This document shows positions 1-61,329 of a stretch of 64,000 bases of DNA, in pieces. The DNA lies in NCBI GenBank assembly GCA_043814985.1, contig JBDRJK010000019.1, forward strand, positions 32,001 to 96,000, written 5' to 3'. The translations under genes and the position numbers were made by a program. Each line of letters begins with the position of its first letter. The first letter of the stretch is position 1. The stretch is from Candidatus Aenigmatarchaeota archaeon. GTDB taxonomy: Archaea; Aenigmatarchaeota; Aenigmatarchaeia; Aenigmatarchaeales; Aenigmatarchaeaceae. The notes beneath the pieces were generated by a model. The model had not been told where the DNA came from. It was given only the letters and a program-made list of their open reading frames with translations, and made no database searches.

Positions 1-261
1 CTGGGTAGACAGCTGCCCCTGTTAAGGGAGGAAATTCCATCCACCATTAGCCTCAAAGGCTTGCCGTCCCTCGGGATTAGGCTGAAAAGCTTAGGTGTCC
101 AATAGGGCTTCATGTTCGACTTGGACGATGCTGGCAAGGTGCAAGACCAAACAGCTCTGATGACGAAAGAGGAGCGGGTAGGTTGCATCAGACGAATGCT
201 GTCAAGCAGGAGTGATTGTTTTTACAGGATCTGCTCACAGAAGATGGATTATGCCCAGGCC
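1..261 (+). ncRNA. rnpB: RNase P RNA (type A-like catalytic domain, reduced S-domain; 5' end probably a few nt upstream of the window)
   Basis: CR-I GAGGAAAUUCCAUC (28-41) pairs with CR-V ACAGAAGAUGGAUUAU (237-252) to form P4 with a bulged U; P1 CUGGGUA/UGCCCAG; P2 GACAGC(8-13)/GCUGUC(198-203); P15 with GGUA loop; CR-IV-like AGACGAAUG. Confidence 0.9.
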
Positions 262-462
262 ACGACTATTTTTGTTCTATATGTAGACGTTTAACTGGCT
301 GTTGGCTTAAGCGTTATAAAAATCTTGTCATTAGGAGACGACTTCTGCTATTATATAGTTTTGAACATAGTTATTAGAACTTAAAACTACACATATATCA
401 AAACATCTAGCGTACATTATATGACTCATTTAATCAAAGAAAAAATATTTAGGTGATACAGA

Positions 463-51706: not shown

Positions 51707-51822
51707 CCCCGTCTGGCTCAATGGTAGAGCGGTCGGCTGTAGCTTTTTACTGTTGTATTAAGCATTTAGCAACCGTTCAAACAGAAACCGACAGGTTGGG
51801 AGTTCGACTCTCCCGGCGGGGA
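51707..51822 (+). tRNA. tRNA-Tyr(GUA) with 44-nt intron (51743-51786)
   Basis: C1-G72 acceptor CCCCGUC/GGCGGGG, A73, BHB helix CUGU/ACAG, GUUCGA T-loop. Confidence 0.93.
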
Positions 51823-51866
51823 CTCTTTTCCTTTTTAGAAAAGAATAAATCTATGTTATCCAAAAG

Positions 51867-52184
51867 ATGAATATGGTATTAAAGAGAATTAGAAACTTTT
51901 TAGAAATTCACACTGACTACTTCAAACTATCCCTCAGGAATAGGAAAAAGTCTGTCCTTTGTCCCATGTGCAGCAAAAACATATCTAAGATAAGTGCAAT
52001 AGTACTTTGTAAAAAATGCGATGAAAAATTCTCTAAGTATTCTGATAACTTGAAAAGAACAATCGTTGAGAGAATAAAGAAACGTCCGAACAAAACCAAA
52101 TGCTCTTTCTGTAATGAAGGCGGTCTGAAATTGGATAACAGACTGATTTACTGTGCTGATTGCGACGTCTCCTTCCATCTCTAG
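51867..52184 (+). CDS. Zinc-finger hypothetical protein
   Basis: Four CxxC pairs. Confidence 0.6.
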   Translation: MNMVLKRIRNFLEIHTDYFKLSLRNRKKSVLCPMCSKNISKISAIVLCKKCDEKFSKYSDNLKRTIVERIKKRPNKTKCSFCNEGGLKLDNRLIYCADCDVSFHL

Positions 52185-52220
52185 AATAACCTTTAAATAC
52201 TTTTCAATTGAAATAAGGTT

Positions 52221-52339
52221 TGGTTGCCGATCAAAGAGTGTAGGCAAGACCCGTTCCCATTTCGAACACGGTAGTGAATCTACATTTCGATTTCGGTTGT
52301 ACTGTCGAAAAGATGGGAACCCGAAGTAGTTGGCGACCA
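52221..52339 (+). rRNA. rrf: 5S rRNA
   Basis: Helix I UGGUUGCCGA/UUGGCGACCA; CCCGUUCCCAU..CGAACACGG.AGU; GUACUG...UGGGAA; ~119 nt. Confidence 0.9.
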
Positions 52340-52406
52340 CTACTTTTCTAAATATTCACAAACTAGAAAACTATTTAAATATCTTACGAAATAAAACAAT
52401 AGATAT

Positions 52407-52478
52407 GCCTCGATAGTATAGTGGTTAGTATACGGGCCTGTCGAGTCCGTGACCTGGGTTCAAATCCCAGTCGGGGCG
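52407..52478 (+). tRNA. tRNA-Asp(GUC)
   Basis: Full cloverleaf, G73. Confidence 0.95.
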
Positions 52479-52489
52479 CAATTATATTC

Positions 52490-52747
52490 ATGGTCGTCAT
52501 ACTGAAGCTGAACAAAGGAACAGCAGAGAAGCTTTTGGAATTCACTTACATCAAGCCAGAGCAGTCTAGGAATCTCTCAGGCAAGGGACTGACATTGGAA
52601 ATTGATGATAAGGACTTTTTGATAGAAATACACGAAAGGGAAAAGATGATAGAGATAGCGGACTATAATGGAAGCTTCGGGATATGGTTCAAGCTTACAA
52701 AGGAGAAAGTCAAGAAATTGAAGGAAATAGCAAAAATGGGCCCATAA
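52490..52747 (+). CDS. Hypothetical protein between tRNAs
   Basis: 85-aa ORF from ATG 52490; last codons overlap tRNA-Lys. Confidence 0.65.
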   Translation: MVVILKLNKGTAEKLLEFTYIKPEQSRNLSGKGLTLEIDDKDFLIEIHEREKMIEIADYNGSFGIWFKLTKEKVKKLKEIAKMGP

Positions 52748-52859
52748 CTCAGTTGGTAGAGTGCCAGGCTTTTATCTGTTAGATAAAAGCATGTGTAACG
52801 CGAAAGCGTGATGACAGGAAGAAACCTGGAAGTCGTGGGTTCGACCCCCACTGGGCCCA
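52738..52859 (+). tRNA. tRNA-Lys(UUU) with 49-nt intron (52775-52823)
   Basis: GGGCCCA/UGGGCCC acceptor; CCAGG/CCUGG anticodon stem; BHB CUUU/GAAG. Confidence 0.92.
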
Positions 52860-52865
52860 CTTTAT

Positions 52866-52975
52866 GCCGAGATAGCTCAGCCTGGTGGAGCGCCGGTCTC
52901 ATAAAATCATTATGAGATTTGATCCCAAGATGATATGGAATCCGGAGGTCGAGGGTTCAAATCCCTCTCTCGGCA
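52866..52975 (+). tRNA. tRNA-Met(CAU), elongator type, with 36-nt intron (~52904-52939)
   Basis: G1-C72 acceptor GCCGAGA/UCUCGGC; relaxed splice motif (UCAU/AUGG), so a 38/39 position is also possible. Confidence 0.9.
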
Positions 52976-52998
52976 TAATTCATTGTTAAAGTGATTGA

Positions 52999-53355
52999 AT
53001 GCACTGGAAAGAGAACTTCAAGGAAGGCAAAGAAATAATTCTTTCTACATGCTCCAATTCAGGGGAGCCCAATGCCAACATAGTCATTTCCTTGGGGTTT
53101 GCTGATGAGAAGCTGCTTGTAGCGGACTGCTAGATGACAACCACAATAAAGAACCTGAGGGAAAACAAGAATATCTGCGTGGTCGGTGGCTATTTCAGAA
53201 TAAAGGGAACAGTTGAAATATACGATTCTGGAAAGTACTTTGACGTTTGTTCTGAAATTCTTCGTGGGCAAGATGAAACACTTGAAATGAGGAATGCAAT
53301 CATTATTACTGTTAAAGAAGTTTTTGACTTGGAAAATAATAAGAAAATAATTTAA
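52999..53355 (+). pseudogene. Pyridoxamine-5'-phosphate-oxidase-like FMN-binding protein with in-frame TAG
   Basis: LSTCS..GEPN...LLVADC*MTTTIKNLREN...IKG; TAG at 53131-53133. Confidence 0.78.
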
Positions 53356-54045
53356 TTACCAATACATTTTCTGCTCCTTTCCTATCTTCAGTCTGAAGTA
53401 GTTCAATAGGTAATACTTGAAGGCTGTCCTGTGGAAGCCTTTCTTGAAGCGCCTTGCAGAAATGAGCATGTACAATTCTTTACAACACTTGACCTTCCCC
53501 ACCTTTCTCAACCTGTTGCCCAGGTCAAAGTCCTCCAAAAAATTTAATCTGAAAGGATGCTTCTTCAGAATATCTCTTTTGAAGGCAGCGTTCGATGCGC
53601 ATATGCAAGGGTAATCCATTTTTGAGACTATCCTCAAAAACAAATCTCCCCATACTTTCAAACCGATCCTGGCCTCGGTTTTTGCATCATATGGGATTAT
53701 TGGCCCGAATATGCATACATTGTCTTTCATTAATTTAGATATTTTTTCAATCCAGTCATCGGGGGGACGGCAGTCAGCATCGCAATATGCTACTATTTCT
53801 CCTTTAGCAGTCTTCCATCCAAGGTTCCTTGCACTGGCAATTCCATTTTTTTTGTCCCTGACAACTTTGTCAGCGTATTTCTTGGCTATATTATATGTGT
53901 CGTCAATTGAATGTCCGTCCACGACAATTATTTCAGGTTTCAGAGTCTGCCTCTTCAAACACTGCAGACATTTCTTTATGTACTTTTCCTCGTTCTTGGC
54001 GCAGACCACCACAGATATTGTCATAAGAGAAATATGAAAAAACAA
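53356..54045 (-). CDS. Family 2 glycosyltransferase
   Basis: SVVV.AKNEE, VVDG.S.D, DAD, ED. Confidence 0.92.
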   Translation of the reverse strand: MFFHISLMTISVVVCAKNEEKYIKKCLQCLKRQTLKPEIIVVDGHSIDDTYNIAKKYADKVVRDKKNGIASARNLGWKTAKGEIVAYCDADCRPPDDWIEKISKLMKDNVCIFGPIIPYDAKTEARIGLKVWGDLFLRIVSKMDYPCICASNAAFKRDILKKHPFRLNFLEDFDLGNRLRKVGKVKCCKELYMLISARRFKKGFHRTAFKYYLLNYFRLKIGKEQKMYW

Positions 54046-54069
54046 AATATATAATGCTTGTGCAAGAGT

Positions 54070-56721
54070 TTACTTCTTTGTCTTGAGTGCTGCCTGCGCA
54101 GCAGAAAGAATGGCTATTGGAACCCTGTAGGGAGAAGCGCTGACATTGGTAAGTCCTATGCTGTGGAAATACTTGACGCTTTCAGGGTCTCCACCATGCT
54201 CCCCGCAAACACCTATCTCAATACCCTTCTTCACCTTGTTGGCCTTCTTGATTGTTATCTCCATCAGCTGTCCCACCCCGACCTTGTCTATGGTCTGGAA
54301 CGGGTCCTTCTCTAATATGCCACTGTCTAGATAACATGAAATGAACTTGCCTGCGTCGTCCCTTGAGAAACCAAGGGTTGTCTGCGTTAGGTCGTTCGTG
54401 CCGAAGCTTATGAAGTCAGACTCCTTTGCAATCGCATCAGCTGTCAACGAAGCTCTCGGAAACTCTATCATGGTTCCTATCTGGTATTTTATCTTGCCTT
54501 GGGCTCCTGTCTCCTTGGCAGCCTTCAATATTATCTCCTTGATTTTTCTGAACTCTTGGATATCAATAATATTAGGAACCTCGATCATGGGTTTGGGATT
54601 TTTGCCCGCTTTTTTGGCTTTCAATGCTGCCTTGAAGATGGCCTTGGCCTGCATCTCACTTATTTCAGGATAGACAACACCTATTCTGCATCCCCTGAAG
54701 CCGAGCATAGGATTGAACTCATGTAATTTGGAAATCCTCTCCCTTATTGTCTTTTCAGGAGTCTTTGATGTTCTGGACAATGTCTTTATGCCGCCCTCTG
54801 TTTTGGGCAGGAACTCGTGCAATGGTGGGTCAAGCAGTCTTATTATCACAGGTTTATTGTTCATGACCTTGAATATTGCTACAAAATCACTTACCTGGTG
54901 TGGCAAGAGCTTGTCAAGTGCAATCCTCCTCTCCTTTTCATTGTCTGCTATGATCATTTCTCTCATTGAGTTTATCCTGTCCTCCTCGAAGAACATGTGC
55001 TCAGTGCGGCACAATCCAATTCCCTCGGCGCCAAAGTCTAGTGCCACCTTGGCGTCATGTGGGTTGTCTGCATTGGTCATTATCTCCATCTTCTTGACCT
55101 TCTTTGCCCATTCCATCAACACTCCAAACTCGTCAGATATGATAGGATCAATAACTGGAAGCTCACCCAAATAGAATTCGCCTGTTGTTCCGTCAAGCGT
55201 GATGTAGTCCCCTTCCTTGATTTTTATGAAGCCTACTGTCATCATGTTGTTTTCCTCGTCAATCGATATTTTCCCGCAGCCCGCAATGCAGCACTTGCCC
55301 ATTCCCCTTGCGACAACAGCAGCGTGCGAGGTCATGCCGCCTCTTGCTGTCAGTATGCCCTCTGCGACATGCATTCCCTCAATGTCCTCTGGTGATGTCT
55401 CGTTCCTAACAAGTATTACTTTCTCATCCCTGTCGCTTGACCATACAAGAGCATCCTCTGCTGTGAACACAACCCTTCCAACAGATGCTCCTGGCGATGC
55501 TGGCAGGCCCTTGCCCAGCGGCTTCTTCTTTTCCTTGGGGTCTATTCTTTTATGTAGGAGCTGCTCCAGTTTGCTCGGCGCTACTCTCATAATTGCCTCC
55601 TCTTTTTTTATGAGGCCTTCCTTGACCATGTCAACAGCAATTTTAACAGCTGCCGGTCCTGTCCTTTTCCCGTTTCTTGTTTGTAAAATGAAAAGCTTGC
55701 CCTTCTGGACTGTGAATTCTAAATCCTGCATGTCCTTGTAATGCTTCTCAAGCTTGTTCCTTATCTGATACAGCTGCTTGTAAATGACTGGCATCTCCTT
55801 CTTTAGCTTGTCTATGCTTTTGGGCGTTCTTATTCCTGCAACCACATCCTCTCCTTGAGCATTGATTAGGTATTCGCCGTAGAACTTGTTCTCTCCCGTG
55901 CTTGGGTTTCTTGTGAAAGCAACACCAGTACATGAGTCTTCTCCCATGTTGCCAAAAATCATGGTCTGTACATTCACGGCAGTTCCAATCAGACCCTTTA
56001 TGTCGTTTATTTTCCTGTACTTTATTGCTCTAGAGTTGTTCCATGAACTGAAGACAGCGTCAATTGCCATTTTCAGCTGCTTCTTGATATCATTTGGAAA
56101 GTCCTTTTTTGTTTCCTTTTTGATGACTGCCTTGAAGTCCTTTACCAATTTCTTGAGGTCATCAACCCCAAGTTCGTAATCATAATGTATATCCTTTCTC
56201 TTCTTTGCCTTGGTTATTATTCCTTCAAAGTGCTTGTGCTCCACATCCATGACAACATTCCCGAACATCTGTACGAACCTTCTGTAGGAATCCCATGCAA
56301 ATCTTTCGTTGCCAGTGTTTTCTTTTAATCCTTTCAACGTCTTTTCATTTAGACCTAGGTTCAATACTGTGTCCATCATGCCAGGCATGCTGACAGCAGC
56401 GCCGCTCCTTATTGATAATAGCAGAGGCCTCTTCACATTTCCCAGGCAGAAGCCCATCTTGTCCTCCAGCTTCTTTATGTTTTTATCAATCTGCTCCTGC
56501 AGTCCAGAAGGATATGAATTTTTGTTCTTGTAAAAGTAATCGCATGTTTCTGTTGTTATGGTGAACCCAGGTGGCACTGGCAGGCCCATTTTTGTCATCT
56601 CTCCCAGGTTTGCTCCTTTGCCTCCTAGAAGGAGTTTGTCCTTTGTATTGCCCTCTCCGAAGAAATACACGAATTTTTTTGATTTGGTGTTTGTTTTCAT
56701 TAAATCTTTTACTCCTCTCAA
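54070..56721 (-). CDS. ppdK: Pyruvate, phosphate dikinase
   Basis: GGKGANL, SMPGMMDT, GGMTSHAAVVARG, GLCRTEHMF, CGEHGG. Confidence 0.98.
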   Translation of the reverse strand: MRGVKDLMKTNTKSKKFVYFFGEGNTKDKLLLGGKGANLGEMTKMGLPVPPGFTITTETCDYFYKNKNSYPSGLQEQIDKNIKKLEDKMGFCLGNVKRPLLLSIRSGAAVSMPGMMDTVLNLGLNEKTLKGLKENTGNERFAWDSYRRFVQMFGNVVMDVEHKHFEGIITKAKKRKDIHYDYELGVDDLKKLVKDFKAVIKKETKKDFPNDIKKQLKMAIDAVFSSWNNSRAIKYRKINDIKGLIGTAVNVQTMIFGNMGEDSCTGVAFTRNPSTGENKFYGEYLINAQGEDVVAGIRTPKSIDKLKKEMPVIYKQLYQIRNKLEKHYKDMQDLEFTVQKGKLFILQTRNGKRTGPAAVKIAVDMVKEGLIKKEEAIMRVAPSKLEQLLHKRIDPKEKKKPLGKGLPASPGASVGRVVFTAEDALVWSSDRDEKVILVRNETSPEDIEGMHVAEGILTARGGMTSHAAVVARGMGKCCIAGCGKISIDEENNMMTVGFIKIKEGDYITLDGTTGEFYLGELPVIDPIISDEFGVLMEWAKKVKKMEIMTNADNPHDAKVALDFGAEGIGLCRTEHMFFEEDRINSMREMIIADNEKERRIALDKLLPHQVSDFVAIFKVMNNKPVIIRLLDPPLHEFLPKTEGGIKTLSRTSKTPEKTIRERISKLHEFNPMLGFRGCRIGVVYPEISEMQAKAIFKAALKAKKAGKNPKPMIEVPNIIDIQEFRKIKEIILKAAKETGAQGKIKYQIGTMIEFPRASLTADAIAKESDFISFGTNDLTQTTLGFSRDDAGKFISCYLDSGILEKDPFQTIDKVGVGQLMEITIKKANKVKKGIEIGVCGEHGGDPESVKYFHSIGLTNVSASPYRVPIAILSAAQAALKTKK

Positions 56722-56848
56722 TGAGTAAATATTGATTTTTTAATATATTTAAAATTTACACAATAACCAACATTTATTTTGATGTTCAATAAAAGATTAA
56801 AGAGTTGTTATATAAATAAAATATCCAAGAAACATATATATTGAAAAT

Positions 56849-56922
56849 GCCTCGATAACTCAGTTCGGTAGAGTGCCTCACTTGTAATGAGGATGTCGGG
56901 GGTTCAAATCCCTCTCGAGGCT
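56849..56922 (+). tRNA. tRNA-Thr(UGU)
   Basis: Full cloverleaf GCCUCGA/UCGAGGC. Confidence 0.95.
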
Positions 56923-57067
56923 TCAGTTTTTTTCAGATATGGAAAATCCAGAATTTAAATTAAGGTCTTAAAACACTTTCAACGAGCATTCTCAAGACTT
57001 TTTAAAGCTTTCATTAGTTTATAAGATTCCGTATAATTTTATAAATGAGTTTTTCTCTATTCTTAAT

Positions 57068-58099
57068 ATGCTTCCTACGGTGAGTTTGATTGTTCCAGCG
57101 AGGAACGAGGAGAAGGTTATAGGCAAATGCGTAAGAAGTTTGTTAAATTTGGACTATCCCAGAGACAAGCTAGAGTTAATAGTTGCAATAGACGGCTCCA
57201 AGGACAGAACCTTAGAGATATGCAAGAGCTTTGGTAGGAGAGTGAGGGTCATAAAATCCTGTCCAAAGACATGCAAGGGAGACGCCTTGAACAATGTGAT
57301 ACCCAAGGCAAAAGGCGAGATAATAGGTATCTATGATGCTGACTGTATTGTTGATAAAAACTGCCTGAAACATGCTGTCAAGCACTTTTCTGATAAAAAA
57401 ATAGCAGGAGTTTGCGGCAATCTCAAGTCCCACAACAAGGAGCAGGGCATGATTGCAAGGTCACTGGCCCTAGAAACCAGCTTCATATCTTTCATAGAGT
57501 ACTTCCTTAACAGTCTCGGAGCCAACACACATTTCTTTGGAAAGAACATGTTCATAAGAAAGAATGTTTTGATGGATGTGGGCTGTTTTGACACTGAGAC
57601 TTTTGTGGAAGACGTGGAGATGTCAATAAAGCTGAAAAAATACGGTTACAAGACGGTTTTCGAGCCCAATGCAATTGCATGGAACGAGGAGCCGCCTTCC
57701 TTCAGAGCATTCTTCAAGCAGCGTATAAGATGGGCCAGAGGAGCTGCAAAGCTGCTTAAGTACAAAAGAAGGCATGGAAAGGAATTCTTGTCAGATGCAA
57801 TGCACGGCATATACTTCTACGTTCCACCTTTCGGTCTTATAACAGCAACTGTCCTTGCAATTGTTATGCAGTTCGGCTTGCCCTTTTTCTTGATACTTCC
57901 CTTTATTGTCCTTTTTATGTTCAACATGGTTCTGCTGGTTTATTCGAGGATAAAGTTCAAGGAGCCTATGGGAGATTTGCTTTATCTGCCGGTGTGGTTT
58001 GTTTTGAGCAATGTTCACTTGGTCTTGTTGCTCAAAGGCCTTCTAGATGAGAAAATGGAAAAGAGTGTTTCTTGGAATTCTGTCAGGGCATTTTCTTAA
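57068..58099 (+). CDS. Processive-type GT2 glycosyltransferase with C-terminal TMs
   Basis: DGSKD, DAD, ED, QRIRW. Confidence 0.92.
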   Translation: MLPTVSLIVPARNEEKVIGKCVRSLLNLDYPRDKLELIVAIDGSKDRTLEICKSFGRRVRVIKSCPKTCKGDALNNVIPKAKGEIIGIYDADCIVDKNCLKHAVKHFSDKKIAGVCGNLKSHNKEQGMIARSLALETSFISFIEYFLNSLGANTHFFGKNMFIRKNVLMDVGCFDTETFVEDVEMSIKLKKYGYKTVFEPNAIAWNEEPPSFRAFFKQRIRWARGAAKLLKYKRRHGKEFLSDAMHGIYFYVPPFGLITATVLAIVMQFGLPFFLILPFIVLFMFNMVLLVYSRIKFKEPMGDLLYLPVWFVLSNVHLVLLLKGLLDEKMEKSVSWNSVRAFS

Positions 58100-58141
58100 A
58101 TGTAAATATATAAAAACACTTGCATATTATTCTCTTAAACA

Positions 58142-58250
58142 GGGGTCATAGTCCAACCAGGCCAAGACGGCTGGCTCCAGTCATGGAGCTTTGATTCCGA
58201 AGATGAAAGGAAGAAACCAGCTGATGGGGGTTCAAATCCCTCTGACCCCA
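58142..58250 (+). tRNA. tRNA-Trp(CCA) with 35-nt intron (58181-58215)
   Basis: GGGGUCA/UGACCCC acceptor; GCUGG/CCAGC anticodon stem. Confidence 0.92.
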
Positions 58251-58265
58251 CTTCATTGTGATTGT

Positions 58266-58664
58266 ATGGATTGTGTCTTTTGCAAGATTGTGAAGGGGGA
58301 GATACCCTGCCACAGGGTTTATGAGGACGATGAGTTCTTTGCATTTTTTGATATAAATCCTCTGAACCCAGGACATACTCTCCTTATTCCCAAGAAGCAT
58401 GTCCAGTGGGTTAATGATTATGAGCCATTTTGCAGTTACTGGCAAACAGCAAGGAAAGTAGCTAATGTGATACAGAAGGTTCTTGACCCTTTGGTTGTCT
58501 CCTATGTTGTATATGGTTTGGGTGTTCCCCACGCGCACATACATCTGATACCAAAGTTCGAGAACGACGAGCATCCATTGGGACCCAACCCTGAGAAGGT
58601 GCAGAAGATACCAGAAGAGGAAATGAAAAAAATCGCTGAGAAAATAAGAAAGTCTTTTAAATAA
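58266..58664 (+). CDS. HIT-family nucleotide hydrolase
   Basis: MDCVFCKI, GHTLLIPKKH, HAHIHLIP; start reassigned to 58266. Confidence 0.95.
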   Translation: MDCVFCKIVKGEIPCHRVYEDDEFFAFFDINPLNPGHTLLIPKKHVQWVNDYEPFCSYWQTARKVANVIQKVLDPLVVSYVVYGLGVPHAHIHLIPKFENDEHPLGPNPEKVQKIPEEEMKKIAEKIRKSFK

Positions 58665-58687
58665 TTACAATTAAAATCTATTCTAGA

Positions 58688-58759
58688 GCGCCGATAGTCT
58701 AATGGTTAGGACTTCAGCCTTCCAAGCTGATAATCCGGGTTCGAATCCCGGTCGGCGCA
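58688..58759 (+). tRNA. tRNA-Gly(UCC)
   Basis: Full cloverleaf GCGCCGA/UCGGCGC. Confidence 0.95.
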
Positions 58760-60194: not shown

Positions 60195-60742
60195 GTATGG
60201 ATAAAACACAAAATGAAATAATCAAGACTGCTGCAGAAATTATTAGGAAAGGTCAAATAGTCGTGTATCCGACAGACACTGTCTATGGTATTGGTGGTGA
60301 TGCTACTTCTGAGGAGGTTGTTAGGAAAGTATACGAAATAAAGAGGAGACCTATGAATATGCCGATTTCAGTTCTTGTTTCAGACTTTGAAATGCTTGAG
60401 AAATATGCTGAAATAAACGAAGAGCAAATGGCTATCTTAAAGAAATTTTTACCAGGACCCTTCACCTTCATTCTAAAGCCAAAAATAAGGCTTTTTGTTT
60501 CTCGGGGTACAGTTGGGTTCAGAATACCAAATCACTGGTGCACCCTGATAGTTAAGGAATTTGGAAAGCCAATAACAACCACATCAGCCAACATACACCA
60601 ACAGACTACTCCTGATAACATAGAAAAAATAAGAGATAATTTTAAGGAATCTGTTTCTCTATACATAGATGAAGGAACTCTAGAAGGAAAGCCTTCAAAG
60701 GTTGTAGACTTGATAGATAGATTAAAAGTGATTAGAGAATGA
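60191..60742 (+). CDS. Threonylcarbamoyl-AMP synthase (YrdC/TsaC/Sua5 domain)
   Basis: YPTDTVYG, K.R, PGPFT, TTSAN. Confidence 0.95.
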   Translation: MSMDKTQNEIIKTAAEIIRKGQIVVYPTDTVYGIGGDATSEEVVRKVYEIKRRPMNMPISVLVSDFEMLEKYAEINEEQMAILKKFLPGPFTFILKPKIRLFVSRGTVGFRIPNHWCTLIVKEFGKPITTTSANIHQQTTPDNIEKIRDNFKESVSLYIDEGTLEGKPSKVVDLIDRLKVIRE

Positions 60743-60900
60743 AATACAAAAGGTTCAAACAATTCAAGGACCAGAGAAGGAAGATAGCAGAAGAGAGGAT
60801 AGAAATACTTGAAGGCATGGTAAAGAAGAAGCCTGAGTTCGAAAAGAGGTATAAAGAACTAATAAAAAGGATAGCTAAGAAATATAGATTAAACATTTAA
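60739..60900 (+). CDS. Truncated RNase P protein Rpp21-like (N-terminal helices only), 53 aa
   Basis: Hand translation RKIAEERIEIL...PEFEKRY..LI..IAKKYRLNI; sits just upstream of rps19e, where rpp21 is often found. Confidence 0.7.
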   Translation: MKYKRFKQFKDQRRKIAEERIEILEGMVKKKPEFEKRYKELIKRIAKKYRLNI

Positions 60901-60924: not shown

Positions 60925-61329
60925 ATGAAACAAGTGCCACCACAGAAGATTGTAGAGAGAGTTTCAGAGAGACTGAAGAAGGACGAGAACATCAAGCCTC
61001 CACAGTGGTCTAAGTTCGTGAAGACAGGTATGTCAAGCGAAAGGCCCCCTATAAAAGAGGACTGGTGGTTTTCCAGGTCCGCAGCCATTCTGAGAAGGAT
61101 TTATGTTCATGGGCCTGTTGGCACGCAGAGACTTAGGACGTCTTTGGGAGGCAGGAGAAGAAGAGGACACAAGCCTGCTCACCGTGCCAGTGCTGGAGGA
61201 AAGATAATAAGGACAATTCTTCAGCAGTTGGAAAAGGCTGGTTATGTTAAAATAGTTGAGAATCCAAAAAAGGGAAGAGTAATAACGCCCAAGGGCCAGA
61301 AACTTTTGGAAAAGGCTGCAGGTGGATAA
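60925..61329 (+). CDS. rps19e: Ribosomal protein eS19
   Basis: PP.W..FVKTG...ERPP, WW..R.A.ILR, IIR.ILQQLE, GR.ITP.G. Confidence 0.97.
   Translation: MKQVPPQKIVERVSERLKKDENIKPPQWSKFVKTGMSSERPPIKEDWWFSRSAAILRRIYVHGPVGTQRLRTSLGGRRRRGHKPAHRASAGGKIIRTILQQLEKAGYVKIVENPKKGRVITPKGQKLLEKAAGG

Follow-up and report, generated by a model that had tools for sequence, protein, structure and literature searches.

An RNase P RNA gene at the edge of the window

The window, a 64,000-nucleotide stretch of DNA from the 808-kb genome of an Aenigmatarchaeota archaeon (DPANN), begins inside the gene of a structured RNA and also carries the gene of a shortened protein that proved relevant to it:

−4..263, + strand: RNase P RNA (RPR) gene, ~268 nt, RF00373 match
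60739..60900, + strand: mini-Rpp21 gene, 53 aa, matched by the in-order Rpp21 profile at 36.7 bits (E 2.2e-9)
60925–61329: ribosomal protein S19e gene, just downstream of the mini-Rpp21 gene

Searching the window with RF00373 aligned positions 3–256 with a score of 77.5 bits (E 7.4e-22), short of the 84-bit gathering threshold of the model because the window truncates helix P1. The whole-genome search, in which P1 was complete, returned G000:C19:31997-32262 at 88.2 bits, above the threshold, which bore out the initial annotation of this locus as an RNase P RNA; the extent of 1..261 proposed there covers the same RNA, but the true limits lie at −4 and ~263. The 5′ start corresponds to position 1496 of L001, 4 nt upstream of the window, with a TATA-like TTTAAATAAT located ~27 nt farther upstream, and a T-run (269–273) follows the 3′ end of the RNA. 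CR-I, CR-IV and CR-V aligned to RF00373 in Infernal, and compensatory changes were detected in 30 of the 48 predicted pairs among 17 sequences, with P4, P1, P3, P15 and P16 all covarying.

A single RNA-library contig of 185 nt (n = 1), identical to the gene, covered L001 1496–1680; it lay wholly within the RNA, began at the predicted 5′ end and broke at position 1680, the same point as the DNA contigs. RNA-library contigs were absent from the flanks and from the 3′ third of the RPR, and, since contigs cannot reveal ends or levels, these uncovered parts carry no conclusion. DNA contigs of two other runs matched the RPR sequence. All genomes compared in this work were MAGs of 42–98% completeness. 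Taken together, these data identify window positions −4..263 as the gene for this archaeon's RNase P RNA.

A complete catalytic domain with a K-turn signature in P19

The catalytic domain was assigned as follows:

1..6 plus 4 nt upstream of the window, + strand: P1 5′ strand, paired with 253–263
8..13, + strand: P2 5′ strand GACAGC, 6 bp with 198–203 (Infernal alignment and direct reading)
17..28, + strand: P3, 4-bp hairpin with a GUUA loop, four pairs with compensatory changes among relatives
28..41, + strand: CR-I and P4 5′ strand GAGGAAAUUCCAUC, U36 bulged, U35 paired with A248
42..45, + strand: P5 5′ strand, paired with 138–141, 100% of cells paired
142..144, + strand: L5-15 linker CAA, 3 nt (direct reading and Infernal alignment)
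145..184, + strand: P15 (145–148/181–184), P16 (154–158/171–175), 12-nt P16 loop GAUGACGAAAGA and L15 (Infernal and relatives' alignment)
185..197, + strand: CR-IV / J15-2 (Infernal alignment)
198..203, + strand: P2 3′ strand GCUGUC (Infernal alignment and direct reading)
206..234, + strand: P19 hairpin, a 29-nt insertion relative to RF00373
237..250, + strand: CR-V and P4 3′ strand ACAGAAGAUGGAUU (Infernal and relatives' alignment)
253..263, + strand: P1 3′ strand (sequence and alignment of relatives)

By these alignments the domain is complete and type-A-like, comprising P1–P5, CR-I/IV/V, a 3-nt L5-15 linker, P15/P16 with GGU, and P19. P1 covaried (for example, columns 6/334 were CG in 15 sequences and UA in 2), and the P4 pseudoknot with its bulged U retained eight pairs with compensatory changes across the 17 sequences. 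The initial annotation had pointed to a U-A pair replacing the usual G-C before the bulged U of P4, and this pair was indeed found (U35–A248, preceding U36). The corresponding position is UG in 6, CG in 6 and UA in 5 of the 17 sequences; the U-A change is common to most of the class and unrelated to the change in the specificity (S) domain described below. P15 consisted of 4 bp, equal to the RF00373 consensus, and the GGU of the P15/P16 loop, also recognized earlier, was located at 177–179, GGGU being invariant in the 17 sequences and the GGGUR motif present in 32/32 RPRs of the order. PMC6565675 places the "A anchor" at the L5-15 linker. P6, which the annotation had folded, was not confirmed: by eye, the 12-nt P16 loop offered no complement to the bases joining P5 and P7. 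P17 is absent from the RNA.

The P19 hairpin, recognized from the outset, consists of a C-stem (206–210/230–234), an AGU bulge (211–213) and an NC stem (216–219/224–227), with GA 214–215 facing GA 228–229, which is a K-turn sequence signature. The C-stem was paired in 8/8 family members with 4/5 pairs covarying, and both GA dinucleotides were invariant in this 8-sequence alignment, on which the K-turn assignment rests; outside those eight the P19 loop is longer. A strict K-turn scan found the motif in 7/32 inserts, and a looser scan was discarded for losing its anchors in 24/31 sequences. Thus, all elements of the pattern (C-stem, 3-nt bulge, tandem G.A/A.G and NC stem) are present at the sequence level as a putative L7Ae site, and L7Ae, whose gene was found in the same genome at 60.2 bits, probably binds P19.

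Base-paired arm in place of CR-II and CR-III

The S-domain, enclosed between the two strands of P5, was resolved into these elements:

49..61, + strand: extra hairpin inserted, with respect to RF00373, between P5 and P7, 4/5 pairs changing on both sides
62..65, + strand: P7 5′ strand, paired with 133–136, 4/4 pairs covarying
66..77, + strand: P8 hairpin, 4/4 pairs covarying, 100% paired
78..93, + strand: P9 hairpin with GAAA tetraloop (84–87), 6/6 pairs covarying
94..96, + strand: P10 5′ strand, paired with 130–132, 3/3 pairs covarying
97..126, + strand: shrunken P11-P12 arm, occupying the place of CR-II, long P12 and CR-III
97–102/121–126, + strand: P11, GUCCAA/UUGGAC, 6 bp, covariation on 19 aligned relatives
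103–104 (UA) and 118–120 (GAC), + strand: P11/P12 internal loop, 2+3 nt
105–108/114–117, + strand: P12, 4 bp with the 5-nt loop UUCAU (aligned relatives)
130..141, + strand: 3′ strands of P10 (130–132), P7 (133–136) and P5 (138–141) (19-sequence alignment)

P7–P9, reported as present by the initial annotation, were substantiated by covariation of all three helices, and the P9 loop letters G, A and A were invariant in 17 sequences. The extra hairpin noted there is real and extends over 49–61, but it lies between P5 and P7 rather than between P6 and P7. By position only, this hairpin resembles P5.1.

The helix GUCCAA (97–102)/UUGGAC (121–126) recognized earlier was firmly established as P11, 6/6 of its pairs being altered on both sides among 19 relatives. 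The 18 nt that it encloses do lack CR-II and CR-III, as had been noted; they are structured, with a 4-bp P12 and an internal loop. Infernal, in which an intact CR-II/CR-III at 94–132 should have aligned, placed a local end there, with 34 nt in the RNA where RF00373 has 84 model positions. In addition, we built a covariance model of the CR-II/P12/CR-III module (R1) from 25 RPRs of other orders. R1 matched, at E ≤ 0.01, 82/106 RPR loci from other orders (25 of these being the training sequences) and 0/32 RPR loci of this order, and 12 RPRs of this order remained without a match with the filters switched off. Silence of R1 alone is no proof that the module is absent, because R1 also misses 24/106 RPRs of other orders, as well as three in-order RPRs accompanied by full-length Rpp21. 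The helices that replace the module were supported by covariation: across 19 sequences, 96.0% of cells in the S-domain helices were paired and 31/36 pairs were altered on both sides, in an alignment (A6) whose fitting to the model structure favours pairing. None of 500 shuffles equalled this result, and slid controls reached 24–46% pairing. A MAFFT alignment (A4), the 3′ half of which is not structural, was left out of the counts. Altogether, the interleaved T-loops CR-II/CR-III appear to be gone, with ordinary base pairs in their place, and the predicted S-domain is a scaffold made of the P7/P8/P9/P10 junction, the GNRA loop L9 and a short P11-P12 arm. The P12 loop is conserved as C...AUG, with little or no variation at C108 and A112 in 17 sequences, and might serve as a cryptic replacement contact.

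Graded reduction throughout the order

The P11-P12 arm architecture was seen, with covariation, in 19 independent assemblies. The distance between the P5 strands, measured in 28 RPRs of the order, was 34–50 nt (a single hairpin) in 6, 66–98 nt in 19 and 105–181 nt in 3. Single-hairpin relatives, such as G032, G027 and G028, have a type T-like P10 (small loop or missing). Sister orders of the class contain intact CR-II/III. The predicted S-domain reduction is therefore order-wide and graded, single-hairpin forms included. Renewed RF00373 searches of five genomes of the order in which the first search had detected no RPR (G009, G005, G017, G022 and G039) returned nothing at E ≤ 1.

A regular-expression classing of CR-II, CR-III and L15 over 138 RPRs was rejected as too crude, since it lost its anchors and took a CR-III variant for L15; a strict rule that both anchors are never lost together is therefore not claimed. 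In these crude tests neither anchor was detected in ten RPRs from other orders, and those of the ten that were inspected by eye showed variant CR-II/III letters.

Truncated Rpp21 without the zinc ribbon

Rpp21 normally covers the T-loops and P12. In the host genome the mini-Rpp21 gene encodes only the N-terminal two-helix part of this protein; the zinc ribbon is missing and the 53-aa ORF contains zero cysteines. Pfam Rpr2 (PF04032) gave no match on this ORF, and the best Rpr2 match of the genome (12.2 bits) lay at a different locus and contained internal stops. Across the order, Rpr2 matches above the cut-off, indicating full-length Rpp21, occurred in 4/23 genomes, in contrast to 124/128 genomes of the other orders of the class. 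The in-order Rpp21 profile found matches in 37/41 genomes, mostly in ORFs of 50–67 aa aligned to profile positions ~8–62 only, and it matched the solved Rpp21 structures with E-values from 1e-15 to 1e-13. An S19e gene was located downstream in 29/34 Rpp21 loci, full-length genes included.

Residues I, E-R and L are invariant in mini-Rpp21, with A, I and R-Y nearly so, and the conserved residues correspond to A14, E16, R17, L21 and Y39 of the Pfu protein, which form the Rpp29 interface according to the available text of PMC4919917. Mini-Rpp21 thus appears to keep the residues contacting Rpp29; Rpp29 of the order has an invariant H-E. The genome also encodes Pop5 (74.8 bits), Rpp30 (136.1 bits) and Rpp29 (94.7 bits), and no HARP was found in it. 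Structure prediction of the Rpp29/mini-Rpp21 complex gave a median score of 0.52 (runs of 0.52, 0.47 and 0.83) compared to 0.00 for the best control, with at least 51% of contacts agreeing between the runs and a partner pLDDT of at least 70. The mark applied is reached by 116/157 solved complexes and 2/215 mismatches, of which 18 solved complexes and both mismatches score ≤0.60. The prediction hints at a complex, and the pass may reflect mere likeness because a similar complex has already been solved.

The three RPRs accompanied by full-length Rpp21 (369 nt in G031, 306 nt in G038 and 308 nt in G026) rank within the top six by length among the order's 32 RPRs. Of the three longest S-domain stretches in the set of 28 measured, which does not include G026, two belong to G031 and G038. 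Rpp21 status was assigned in 27 of the 32 RPR-bearing genomes (all except G014, G023, G028, G030 and G037), and the RF00373 search found no RPR in G009, which has full-length Rpp21, or in G005, which has an intermediate form. By these comparisons, the zinc ribbon of Rpp21 was lost in the same order as the elbow module. The available text of PMC4919917 describes this ribbon as universally conserved and needed for activity of the P. horikoshii enzyme.

Proposed pre-tRNA selection by an enzyme lacking the elbow module

We consider it probable that the locus encodes an RNase P RNA devoid of the elbow-binding module, matched by a truncated Rpp21, in an RNP that selects pre-tRNA by its acceptor end. 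The enzyme would consist of the RNA with Pop5, Rpp30, Rpp29 and mini-Rpp21, probably joined by L7Ae on the P19 K-turn. Recognition of pre-tRNA would be mainly by the end of the acceptor stem, through the A anchor, the 5′ leader bound on Pop5 and perhaps L15, by analogy with the way type T enzymes are thought to work, and the length of the acceptor/T-arm would go unmeasured. The retained P7–P9 may brace the structure through an L9-P1 contact and offer a platform to Rpp29 and mini-Rpp21. The 3′ CCA is encoded in 0–2 of the 30 tRNA genes of this genome; since so few genes encode CCA, an L15–CCA contact would require addition of CCA ahead of 5′ cleavage.

In canonical enzymes CR-II and CR-III, two interleaved T-loops, stack on the tRNA elbow, and such a contact could have been kept in a cryptic, re-invented form, either by the internal loop 103–104/118–120 together with the P12 loop or by Rpp29/mini-Rpp21. 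The near-invariance of C108 and A112 and the P12 loop that always ends in AU before G (17 sequences) agree with this possibility, as do the retention, rather than deletion, of the P11-P12 arm in 19 RPRs and the CR-III-like letters of some relatives (UGAAACG in G023 and G030, CUGAAC in G025). However, these letters pair with the opposite strand (GUUCAG/CUGAAC), no unpaired stretch of T-loop size is left, and other families of the order dispense with the arm entirely, having a single hairpin instead. We therefore regard a cryptic elbow contact as unlikely.

A decaying relic, in which RNase P is dispensable because the tRNAs lack leaders (a situation reported for Nanoarchaeum equitans) or is replaced by another enzyme, would suit a very small DPANN genome (808 kb) that has lost both an essential-looking module and a protein domain. 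This reading has little to commend it given that compensatory changes accompany the conservation of the catalytic core and of every helix across the order, that Pop5, Rpp30, Rpp29 and mini-Rpp21 are retained with no HARP found, and that an RNA-library contig matches the RPR. That the RNA is an ordinary type A form, its missing module being an assembly or alignment artefact, is scarcely credible, even with the 5′ end truncated by the window and all genomes being MAGs, because the same architecture recurs with covariation in 19 independent assemblies, DNA contigs of two other runs show the same sequence, and the same analysis clearly reveals the module in sister orders.

The order could represent a natural deletion series of the substrate-measuring device, a broader proposal that we advance only tentatively. 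The series would run from a full S-domain through the mini P11-P12 arm to a single hairpin, with Rpp21 shrinking in step, the full zinc ribbon giving way first to a short Cys knuckle (G025, G005) and then to the helices only. tRNA precursors would be selected by the acceptor end alone or by an undescribed contact, while the sister orders would have retained the elbow anchor and given up L15/P16.

Both the T-loop anchor formed by CR-II/CR-III and the zinc ribbon of Rpp21 have been described as conserved in RNA-based RNase P. The new element on the protein side is that Rpp21 in this order appears mostly cut to Rpp29-binding helices of 50–67 aa that lack the ribbon. A second loss of the elbow anchor, independent of the first and accompanied by living intermediates and a corresponding truncation of the protein, would make RNA-protein co-evolution directly testable and would supply small natural constructs for studying substrate choice without elbow measuring. 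Our results also indicate that RNase P components of DPANN genomes are undercounted by routine annotation, in which the Rfam threshold is applied to fragments and Rpp21 is sought with Pfam Rpr2. The available parts of PMC12974513, PMC10966300 and PMC4919917 mention loss of most of the S-domain for Thermoproteaceae (type T) alone, and the available main text of the papers found on RNase P RNA and Rpp21 in DPANN, Aenigmarchaeota and metagenomes does not describe this form.

Comparison with known RNase P types

The initial annotation had proposed an independent reduction state distinct from types A, M and T, and the comparisons below support this proposal. The reduction can be considered independent because the Aenigmatarchaeota lineage is far from Thermoproteaceae and its sister orders have intact CR-II/III. 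The state is order-wide rather than a one-off, the P4 change is unrelated to it, and P6 was not found.

Type T RNase P RNA of Thermoproteaceae was reportedly described by Lai et al. in 2010. It is defined, in the available text of Chan et al. 2012 (PMC3579882), by a 3-bp P2, a 2-nt P5/P15 linker and a P15 shorter by one bp. Its P10 is either lacking or ends in a small loop, and the threshold of the corresponding model, RF02357, is 60 bits. Our RNA shares with type T a conventional C-domain, the lost T-loop anchor, the presence of L15 and the L9 GNRA loop, an Rpp21 undetectable by standard searches, and the retention of Pop5, Rpp30 and Rpp29. Unlike type T, it comes from an unrelated lineage and has a 6-bp rather than 3-bp P2, a 3-nt rather than 2-nt L5-15 linker, a 4-bp P15, a P10 leading into a 6-bp P11 and a 4-bp P12, and an N-terminal remnant of Rpp21. 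It scores 88 bits with RF00373 compared to ≤10 bits reported for type T. RF02357, the model expected to reveal a type T RNA, gave no match at E ≤ 10 in the host genome, nor did it match the RPR locus of any of five single-hairpin relatives.

The RNA resembles type A (RF00373) in the 6-bp P2, 3-nt L5-15 linker, 4-bp P15, P16, L15 GGU, P8, P9 with a GNRA loop and P19, and it passes the RF00373 threshold. It differs by the absence of the CR-II/CR-III T-loops between P11 and P12, by a P12 of only 4 bp without a K-turn, by P6 and P17, which were not found, by the hairpin inserted between P5 and P7, and by an Rpp21 partner without the zinc ribbon. Compared to Rpp21/Rpr2 (PF04032; 1x0t, 2k3r, 2ki7 and 6k0a), that partner lacks the zinc ribbon and is not recognized by Pfam, whereas the two-helix N-terminus with the A, E-R, L and R-Y residues is the same and the gene adjoins S19e, as the full-length genes of the order do.

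In type M, L15/P16/P17/P6 (often P8) are lost and CR-II/III and a K-turn-bearing P12 are kept. Like type M of Methanococcales and Archaeoglobus, our RNA is a reduced, protein-dependent archaeal RPR of ~250 nt, but P8, P16 and L15 are present and CR-II/III are absent. Within the same class, the type-M-like families f12, f16, f19 and f28 appear to have followed the opposite course of reduction to this RNA and have full-length Rpp21.

Identity, ends and source of the RNA

An RNase P RNA (RPR) had been assigned to 1-261 of the window, and this was confirmed with RF00373, the Rfam model of archaeal RNase P RNA. The match at 3-256 (77.5 bits, E 7.4e-22) fell short of the gathering score of 84 bits, so that a default scan missed the RPR, because the window edge cuts the RNA; with the whole genome sequence (G000, G numbers denoting genomes), the match at positions 31997-32262 of contig C19, where the window covers 32001-96000, reached 88.2 bits. 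A TATA-like TTTAAATAAT was located ~27 nt upstream of position 1496 in L001 (the locus of this RPR), the G at 1496 would pair with C263, giving the extended P1 that relatives also show (GUG.GC ... GC.CAC), and a five-T run occupies 269-273, 3′ of the RNA. Together, these three features set the RNA at window -4 to 263, a length of ~268 nt. A groundwater RNA library yielded one 185-nt contig identical to L001 1496-1680, a weak hint of expression.

The source is a DPANN archaeon with an 808-kb genome in 21 contigs (91% complete) containing intron-bearing tRNA genes; for the TBP gene near the RPR, the nearest named records carry the label Candidatus Aenigmatarchaeota. ARAGORN reported only 30 tRNA genes in total, including, outside the window, one with anticodon CUA at C1:15164-15250 (labelled Pyl) and an intron-bearing one with anticodon UUA at C13:20278-20390 (labelled Stop), which may be suppressor-like tRNAs or miscalls. 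Within the window, a 5S rRNA gene clusters with seven tRNA genes at 51707-58759; among the latter, four are 109-122 nt long and presumably intron-bearing. An 87-aa ORF at 1283-1546 is directly followed by a 379-aa ORF at 1548-2687 with CxxxCxxC and a Cys-rich C-terminus, which may be a pair of a small peptide-binding protein and a radical-SAM/SPASM maturase.

Catalytic domain

The following elements were recognized in the catalytic domain:

-4 to 6 with 253-263: P1
8-13 with 198-203: P2, 6 bp
17-20 with 25-28: P3
33-35 and 37-41 with 243-250: P4, U36 bulged
42-45 with 138-141: P5, also supported by the covariation alignment
142-144: L5-15 linker, CAA
145-148 with 181-184: P15
154-158 with 171-175: P16, 12-nt loop
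177-179: GGU of L15
185-197: CR-IV
237-242: CR-V
206-210 with 230-234: C-stem of the P19 K-turn pattern
211-213: bulge AGU of this pattern
214-215 opposite 228-229: its two GA dinucleotides
216-219 with 224-227: its NC stem

P15/P16 with the GGU loop and P19 were found as initially annotated, and the GGGUR motif of L15 was present in 32/32 RPRs of the window's order. P19 corresponds to a 29-nt insertion relative to RF00373 between P2 and CR-V; its C-stem was paired in 8/8 family sequences with 4 of the 5 pairs changed on both sides, and both GA dinucleotides were invariant in the same eight. PMC12974513 describes P19 as ancestral in Archaea and sporadically lost. The K-turn pattern suggests that P19 would bind L7Ae, the gene for which is present in the genome. 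The P16 loop GAUGACGAAAGA (154-175, flanks CUCU/GGAG) resembles a K-loop (GA ... GA), with similar letters in the RF00373 consensus at this site, and may be a second L7Ae site.

Inspection by eye found no P17 and no partner for the bases joining P5 and P7, which leaves the earlier claim of a folded P6 unconfirmed. The P4 change was real and compensated (U35-A248) but, despite its initial reading, not special to this RPR: among 17 in-order sequences, the bulged U was preceded by U-G (6), C-G (6) or U-A (5) and never by G-C, and by a loose motif count the base before this U was a pyrimidine in 28/29 RPRs of the order and 87/102 of the other orders of the class.

A specificity domain without the T-loop module

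The S-domain contains the following helices, all supported by covariation:

49-53 with 57-61: extra hairpin between P5 and P7, an insertion relative to RF00373
62-65 with 133-136: P7
66-69 with 74-77: P8
78-83 with 88-93: P9, GAAA loop
94-96 with 130-132: P10
97-102 with 121-126: P11
105-108 with 114-117: P12, 4 bp, loop UUCAU

A covariance model (R2) built from the four genus sequences (alignment A5) aligned 19 of 31 RPR loci of the order, with 96.0% of cells paired and 31 of 36 pairs changing on both sides; fitting the alignment to the model favours pairing, but the margin over controls was large (0/500 shuffles matched this pairing, and slid controls were 24-46% paired). The GUCCAA/UUGGAC helix of the initial annotation was thereby substantiated as P11, and its extra hairpin was supported as well, although between P5 and P7 instead of P6 and P7; we liken it to P5.1 by position only.

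Only UA (103-104) and GAC (118-120) are unpaired between P11 and P12, whereas in the RF00373 consensus ACAGAAACGAcA and gaUGAAACG flank a long P12 that bears a K-turn. Infernal aligned no CR-II/CR-III, the T-loop module that binds the tRNA elbow, and left the P11-P12 part as a local end, with 34 nt replacing 84 model positions. As a positive control, 106 RPRs from other orders were inspected among 151 genomes of the phylum (a single class), and most carried plain AUCAGAAACGA ... [AG]UGAAACGG flanking a GAUGA-bearing P12. From 25 of these, a CR-II/P12/CR-III module model (R1) was built, which matched 82/106 of the other-order loci at E<=0.01 (25 being the training sequences) and 0/32 of those in the window's order; with filters off, it matched none of 12 RPRs of the order, the only hits lying outside RPRs or on a plain hairpin of locus L188. 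Because R1 also missed 24 other-order RPRs with variant CR-II/III letters (e.g. CAGAAAUAAACC, GGGUGAAAGA) as well as the three RPRs of the window's order whose S-domains are larger, a lack of R1 matches does not by itself prove loss. The local end, the covarying P11 and the lack of any unpaired stretch of T-loop length indicate that CR-II/III is gone from this RPR, as first noted. CR-III-like letters persist in some relatives (UGAAACG in G023 and G030, CUGAAC in G025), paired with the opposite strand.

An Rpp21 remnant

The genome encodes Pop5 (74.8 bits), Rpp30 (136.1 bits) and Rpp29 (94.7 bits); HARP was not found in it. The best match to Rpr2, the Pfam family of Rpp21, reached only 12.2 bits with internal stops. 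Rpr2 exceeded the cut-off in 124/128 phylum-sample genomes of other orders and in 4/23 of the window's order (G009, G026, G031 and G038, the same four among all 41), where Rpp29 was detected in 37/41. A profile (A2) of these four full-length proteins and a sub-threshold G025 protein also matched 37/41 genomes. In 27 of 35 loci with extracted ORFs, the product was only 50-67 aa long, covered profile positions ~8-62 only and lacked CxxC (mini-Rpp21); the 128-aa G027 ORF combines the same N-terminal domain with a low-complexity tail. The window's copy is as follows:

60739-60900: mini-Rpp21 ORF, 53 aa, no cysteine

This ORF ends 24 nt before the ribosomal protein gene S19e, a gap too short to hold a decayed zinc ribbon. 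In 29/34 loci, S19e follows downstream on the same strand, including the full-length genes of G009, G031 and G038, which identifies the short ORFs as positional orthologues of Rpp21. In a joint alignment (A7), of which Pfam recognizes only the four full-length rows, the minis fall on the two N-terminal helices, and the A7 profile matched solved Rpp21 chains 2k3r, 1x0t and 6k0a (E 1e-15 to 1e-13). The conserved mini residues A, E-R, L and R-Y correspond to Pfu A14, E16, R17, L21 and Y39, which form the Rpp29 interface and helical core in PMC4919917; an invariant H-E of the order's Rpp29 corresponds to H46/E47. PMC4919917 also calls the zinc ribbon universally conserved and reports that the P. 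horikoshii enzyme is defective when cysteines are mutated. From their sequences, the Rpp21 ORFs of G025 (short CxxC...CxC) and G005 (CEKC...CKC) look like intermediates.

Complex prediction weakly supports pairing of Rpp29 with the mini. The median score was 0.52 (runs 0.52, 0.47 and 0.83; best control 0.00), runs shared at least 51% of contacts, and partner pLDDT was at least 70. The mark was reached by 116/157 solved complexes and 2/215 mismatches, but at scores up to 0.60 by no more than 18 of those solved complexes and by both mismatches. Since a similar complex has a known structure, likeness alone may explain the pass.

Family f4 (L080 983-1117 in G023; L188 in G030) keeps UGAAACG in its RPR. 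The Rpp21 profile found no N-terminal mini in either genome, and in G023 matched only a 45-aa ORF with two CxxC (positions 42-93, 18.9 bits). In G023, a 23S rRNA 3′ end (L010 2571-3295) lies ~800 nt from the RPR, with 211-nt and 52-nt insertions relative to the Rfam model.

Correspondence between RNA and protein losses

In the M. jannaschii holoenzyme, as described in PMC6565675, Rpp21 contacts the T-loops, P12 and the P12 extension and holds L7Ae on the P12 K-turn, and Rpp29-Rpp21-L7Ae sits at the P1 and P9 ends. The order jointly lacks the T-loops, long P12, P12 K-turn and Rpp21 zinc ribbon, and retains the P7-P9 scaffold, the L9 loop and a long P1, together with Rpp29 and the half of Rpp21 that binds it. 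With Rpp21 status assigned outside G014, G023, G028, G030 and G037, RPRs accompanied by full-length Rpp21 were three of the six longest among 32 (G031 369, G026 308 and G038 306 nt); an RF00373 search found no RPR in G009 and G005. The persistence of full-length genes in two families (f1, f7) suggests more than one loss.

We propose an enzyme without an elbow anchor, in which the RNP would bind pre-tRNA through the C-domain, with the A anchor at L5-15 and the leader on Pop5, and perhaps also through L15. The main alternative is a cryptic new elbow contact that proteins or the P12 loop, which is conserved (C...AUG), could make. One point against a simple L15-CCA compensation is that CCA is encoded by just 0-2 of the 30 ARAGORN tRNA genes and would have to be added first. 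An elbow anchor is likewise proposed to be lacking in type T in PMC10966300.

A graded series and comparison with types T and M

RF00373 matched 32/41 genomes of the order; for 28 of these RPRs, the length of RNA enclosed by the two strands of P5 was determined. Six (G032, G028, G027, G033, G021, G037) had a single hairpin of 34-50 nt, mostly with a GNRA-like cap; 19 spanned 66-98 nt, including the window's RPR (92 nt); and three (G038, G023, G031) spanned 105-181 nt, two of which, G031 and G038, have full-length Rpp21 (G026 lay outside the measured set). The evidence for this RPR form is comparative only. We found no description of it, or of a zinc-ribbon-less Rpp21, in the literature, supplements aside, and the available portions of PMC12974513, PMC10966300 and PMC4919917 attribute loss of most of the S-domain only to Thermoproteaceae.

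Like type T, the RNA of Thermoproteaceae, this RPR is without the elbow module. In contrast to the type T criteria in PMC3579882, it has a 6-bp P2, a 3-nt L5-15 linker and a 4-bp P15 and retains the P10-P12 arm. The type T model RF02357 had no match in the genome at E<=10, nor did it match the RPR loci of five relatives with a single hairpin. The RPR is therefore not a member of the type T family, in agreement with the initial annotation.

Within this one class, the two substrate-contact modules were lost on different branches; a crude module classification does not rule out RPRs lacking both. Among RPRs of the other families (L081-L108, L109-L186), those of family f18 (G160, G137, G057; 357-386 nt) have both modules complete and a P19 K-turn-like insert. 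RPRs of ~210-260 nt in families f12, f16, f19 and f28 keep CR-II/CR-III and a K-turn P12 intact; their P15 is reduced to a mini hairpin, L15 and P16 are missing, and they resemble type M.
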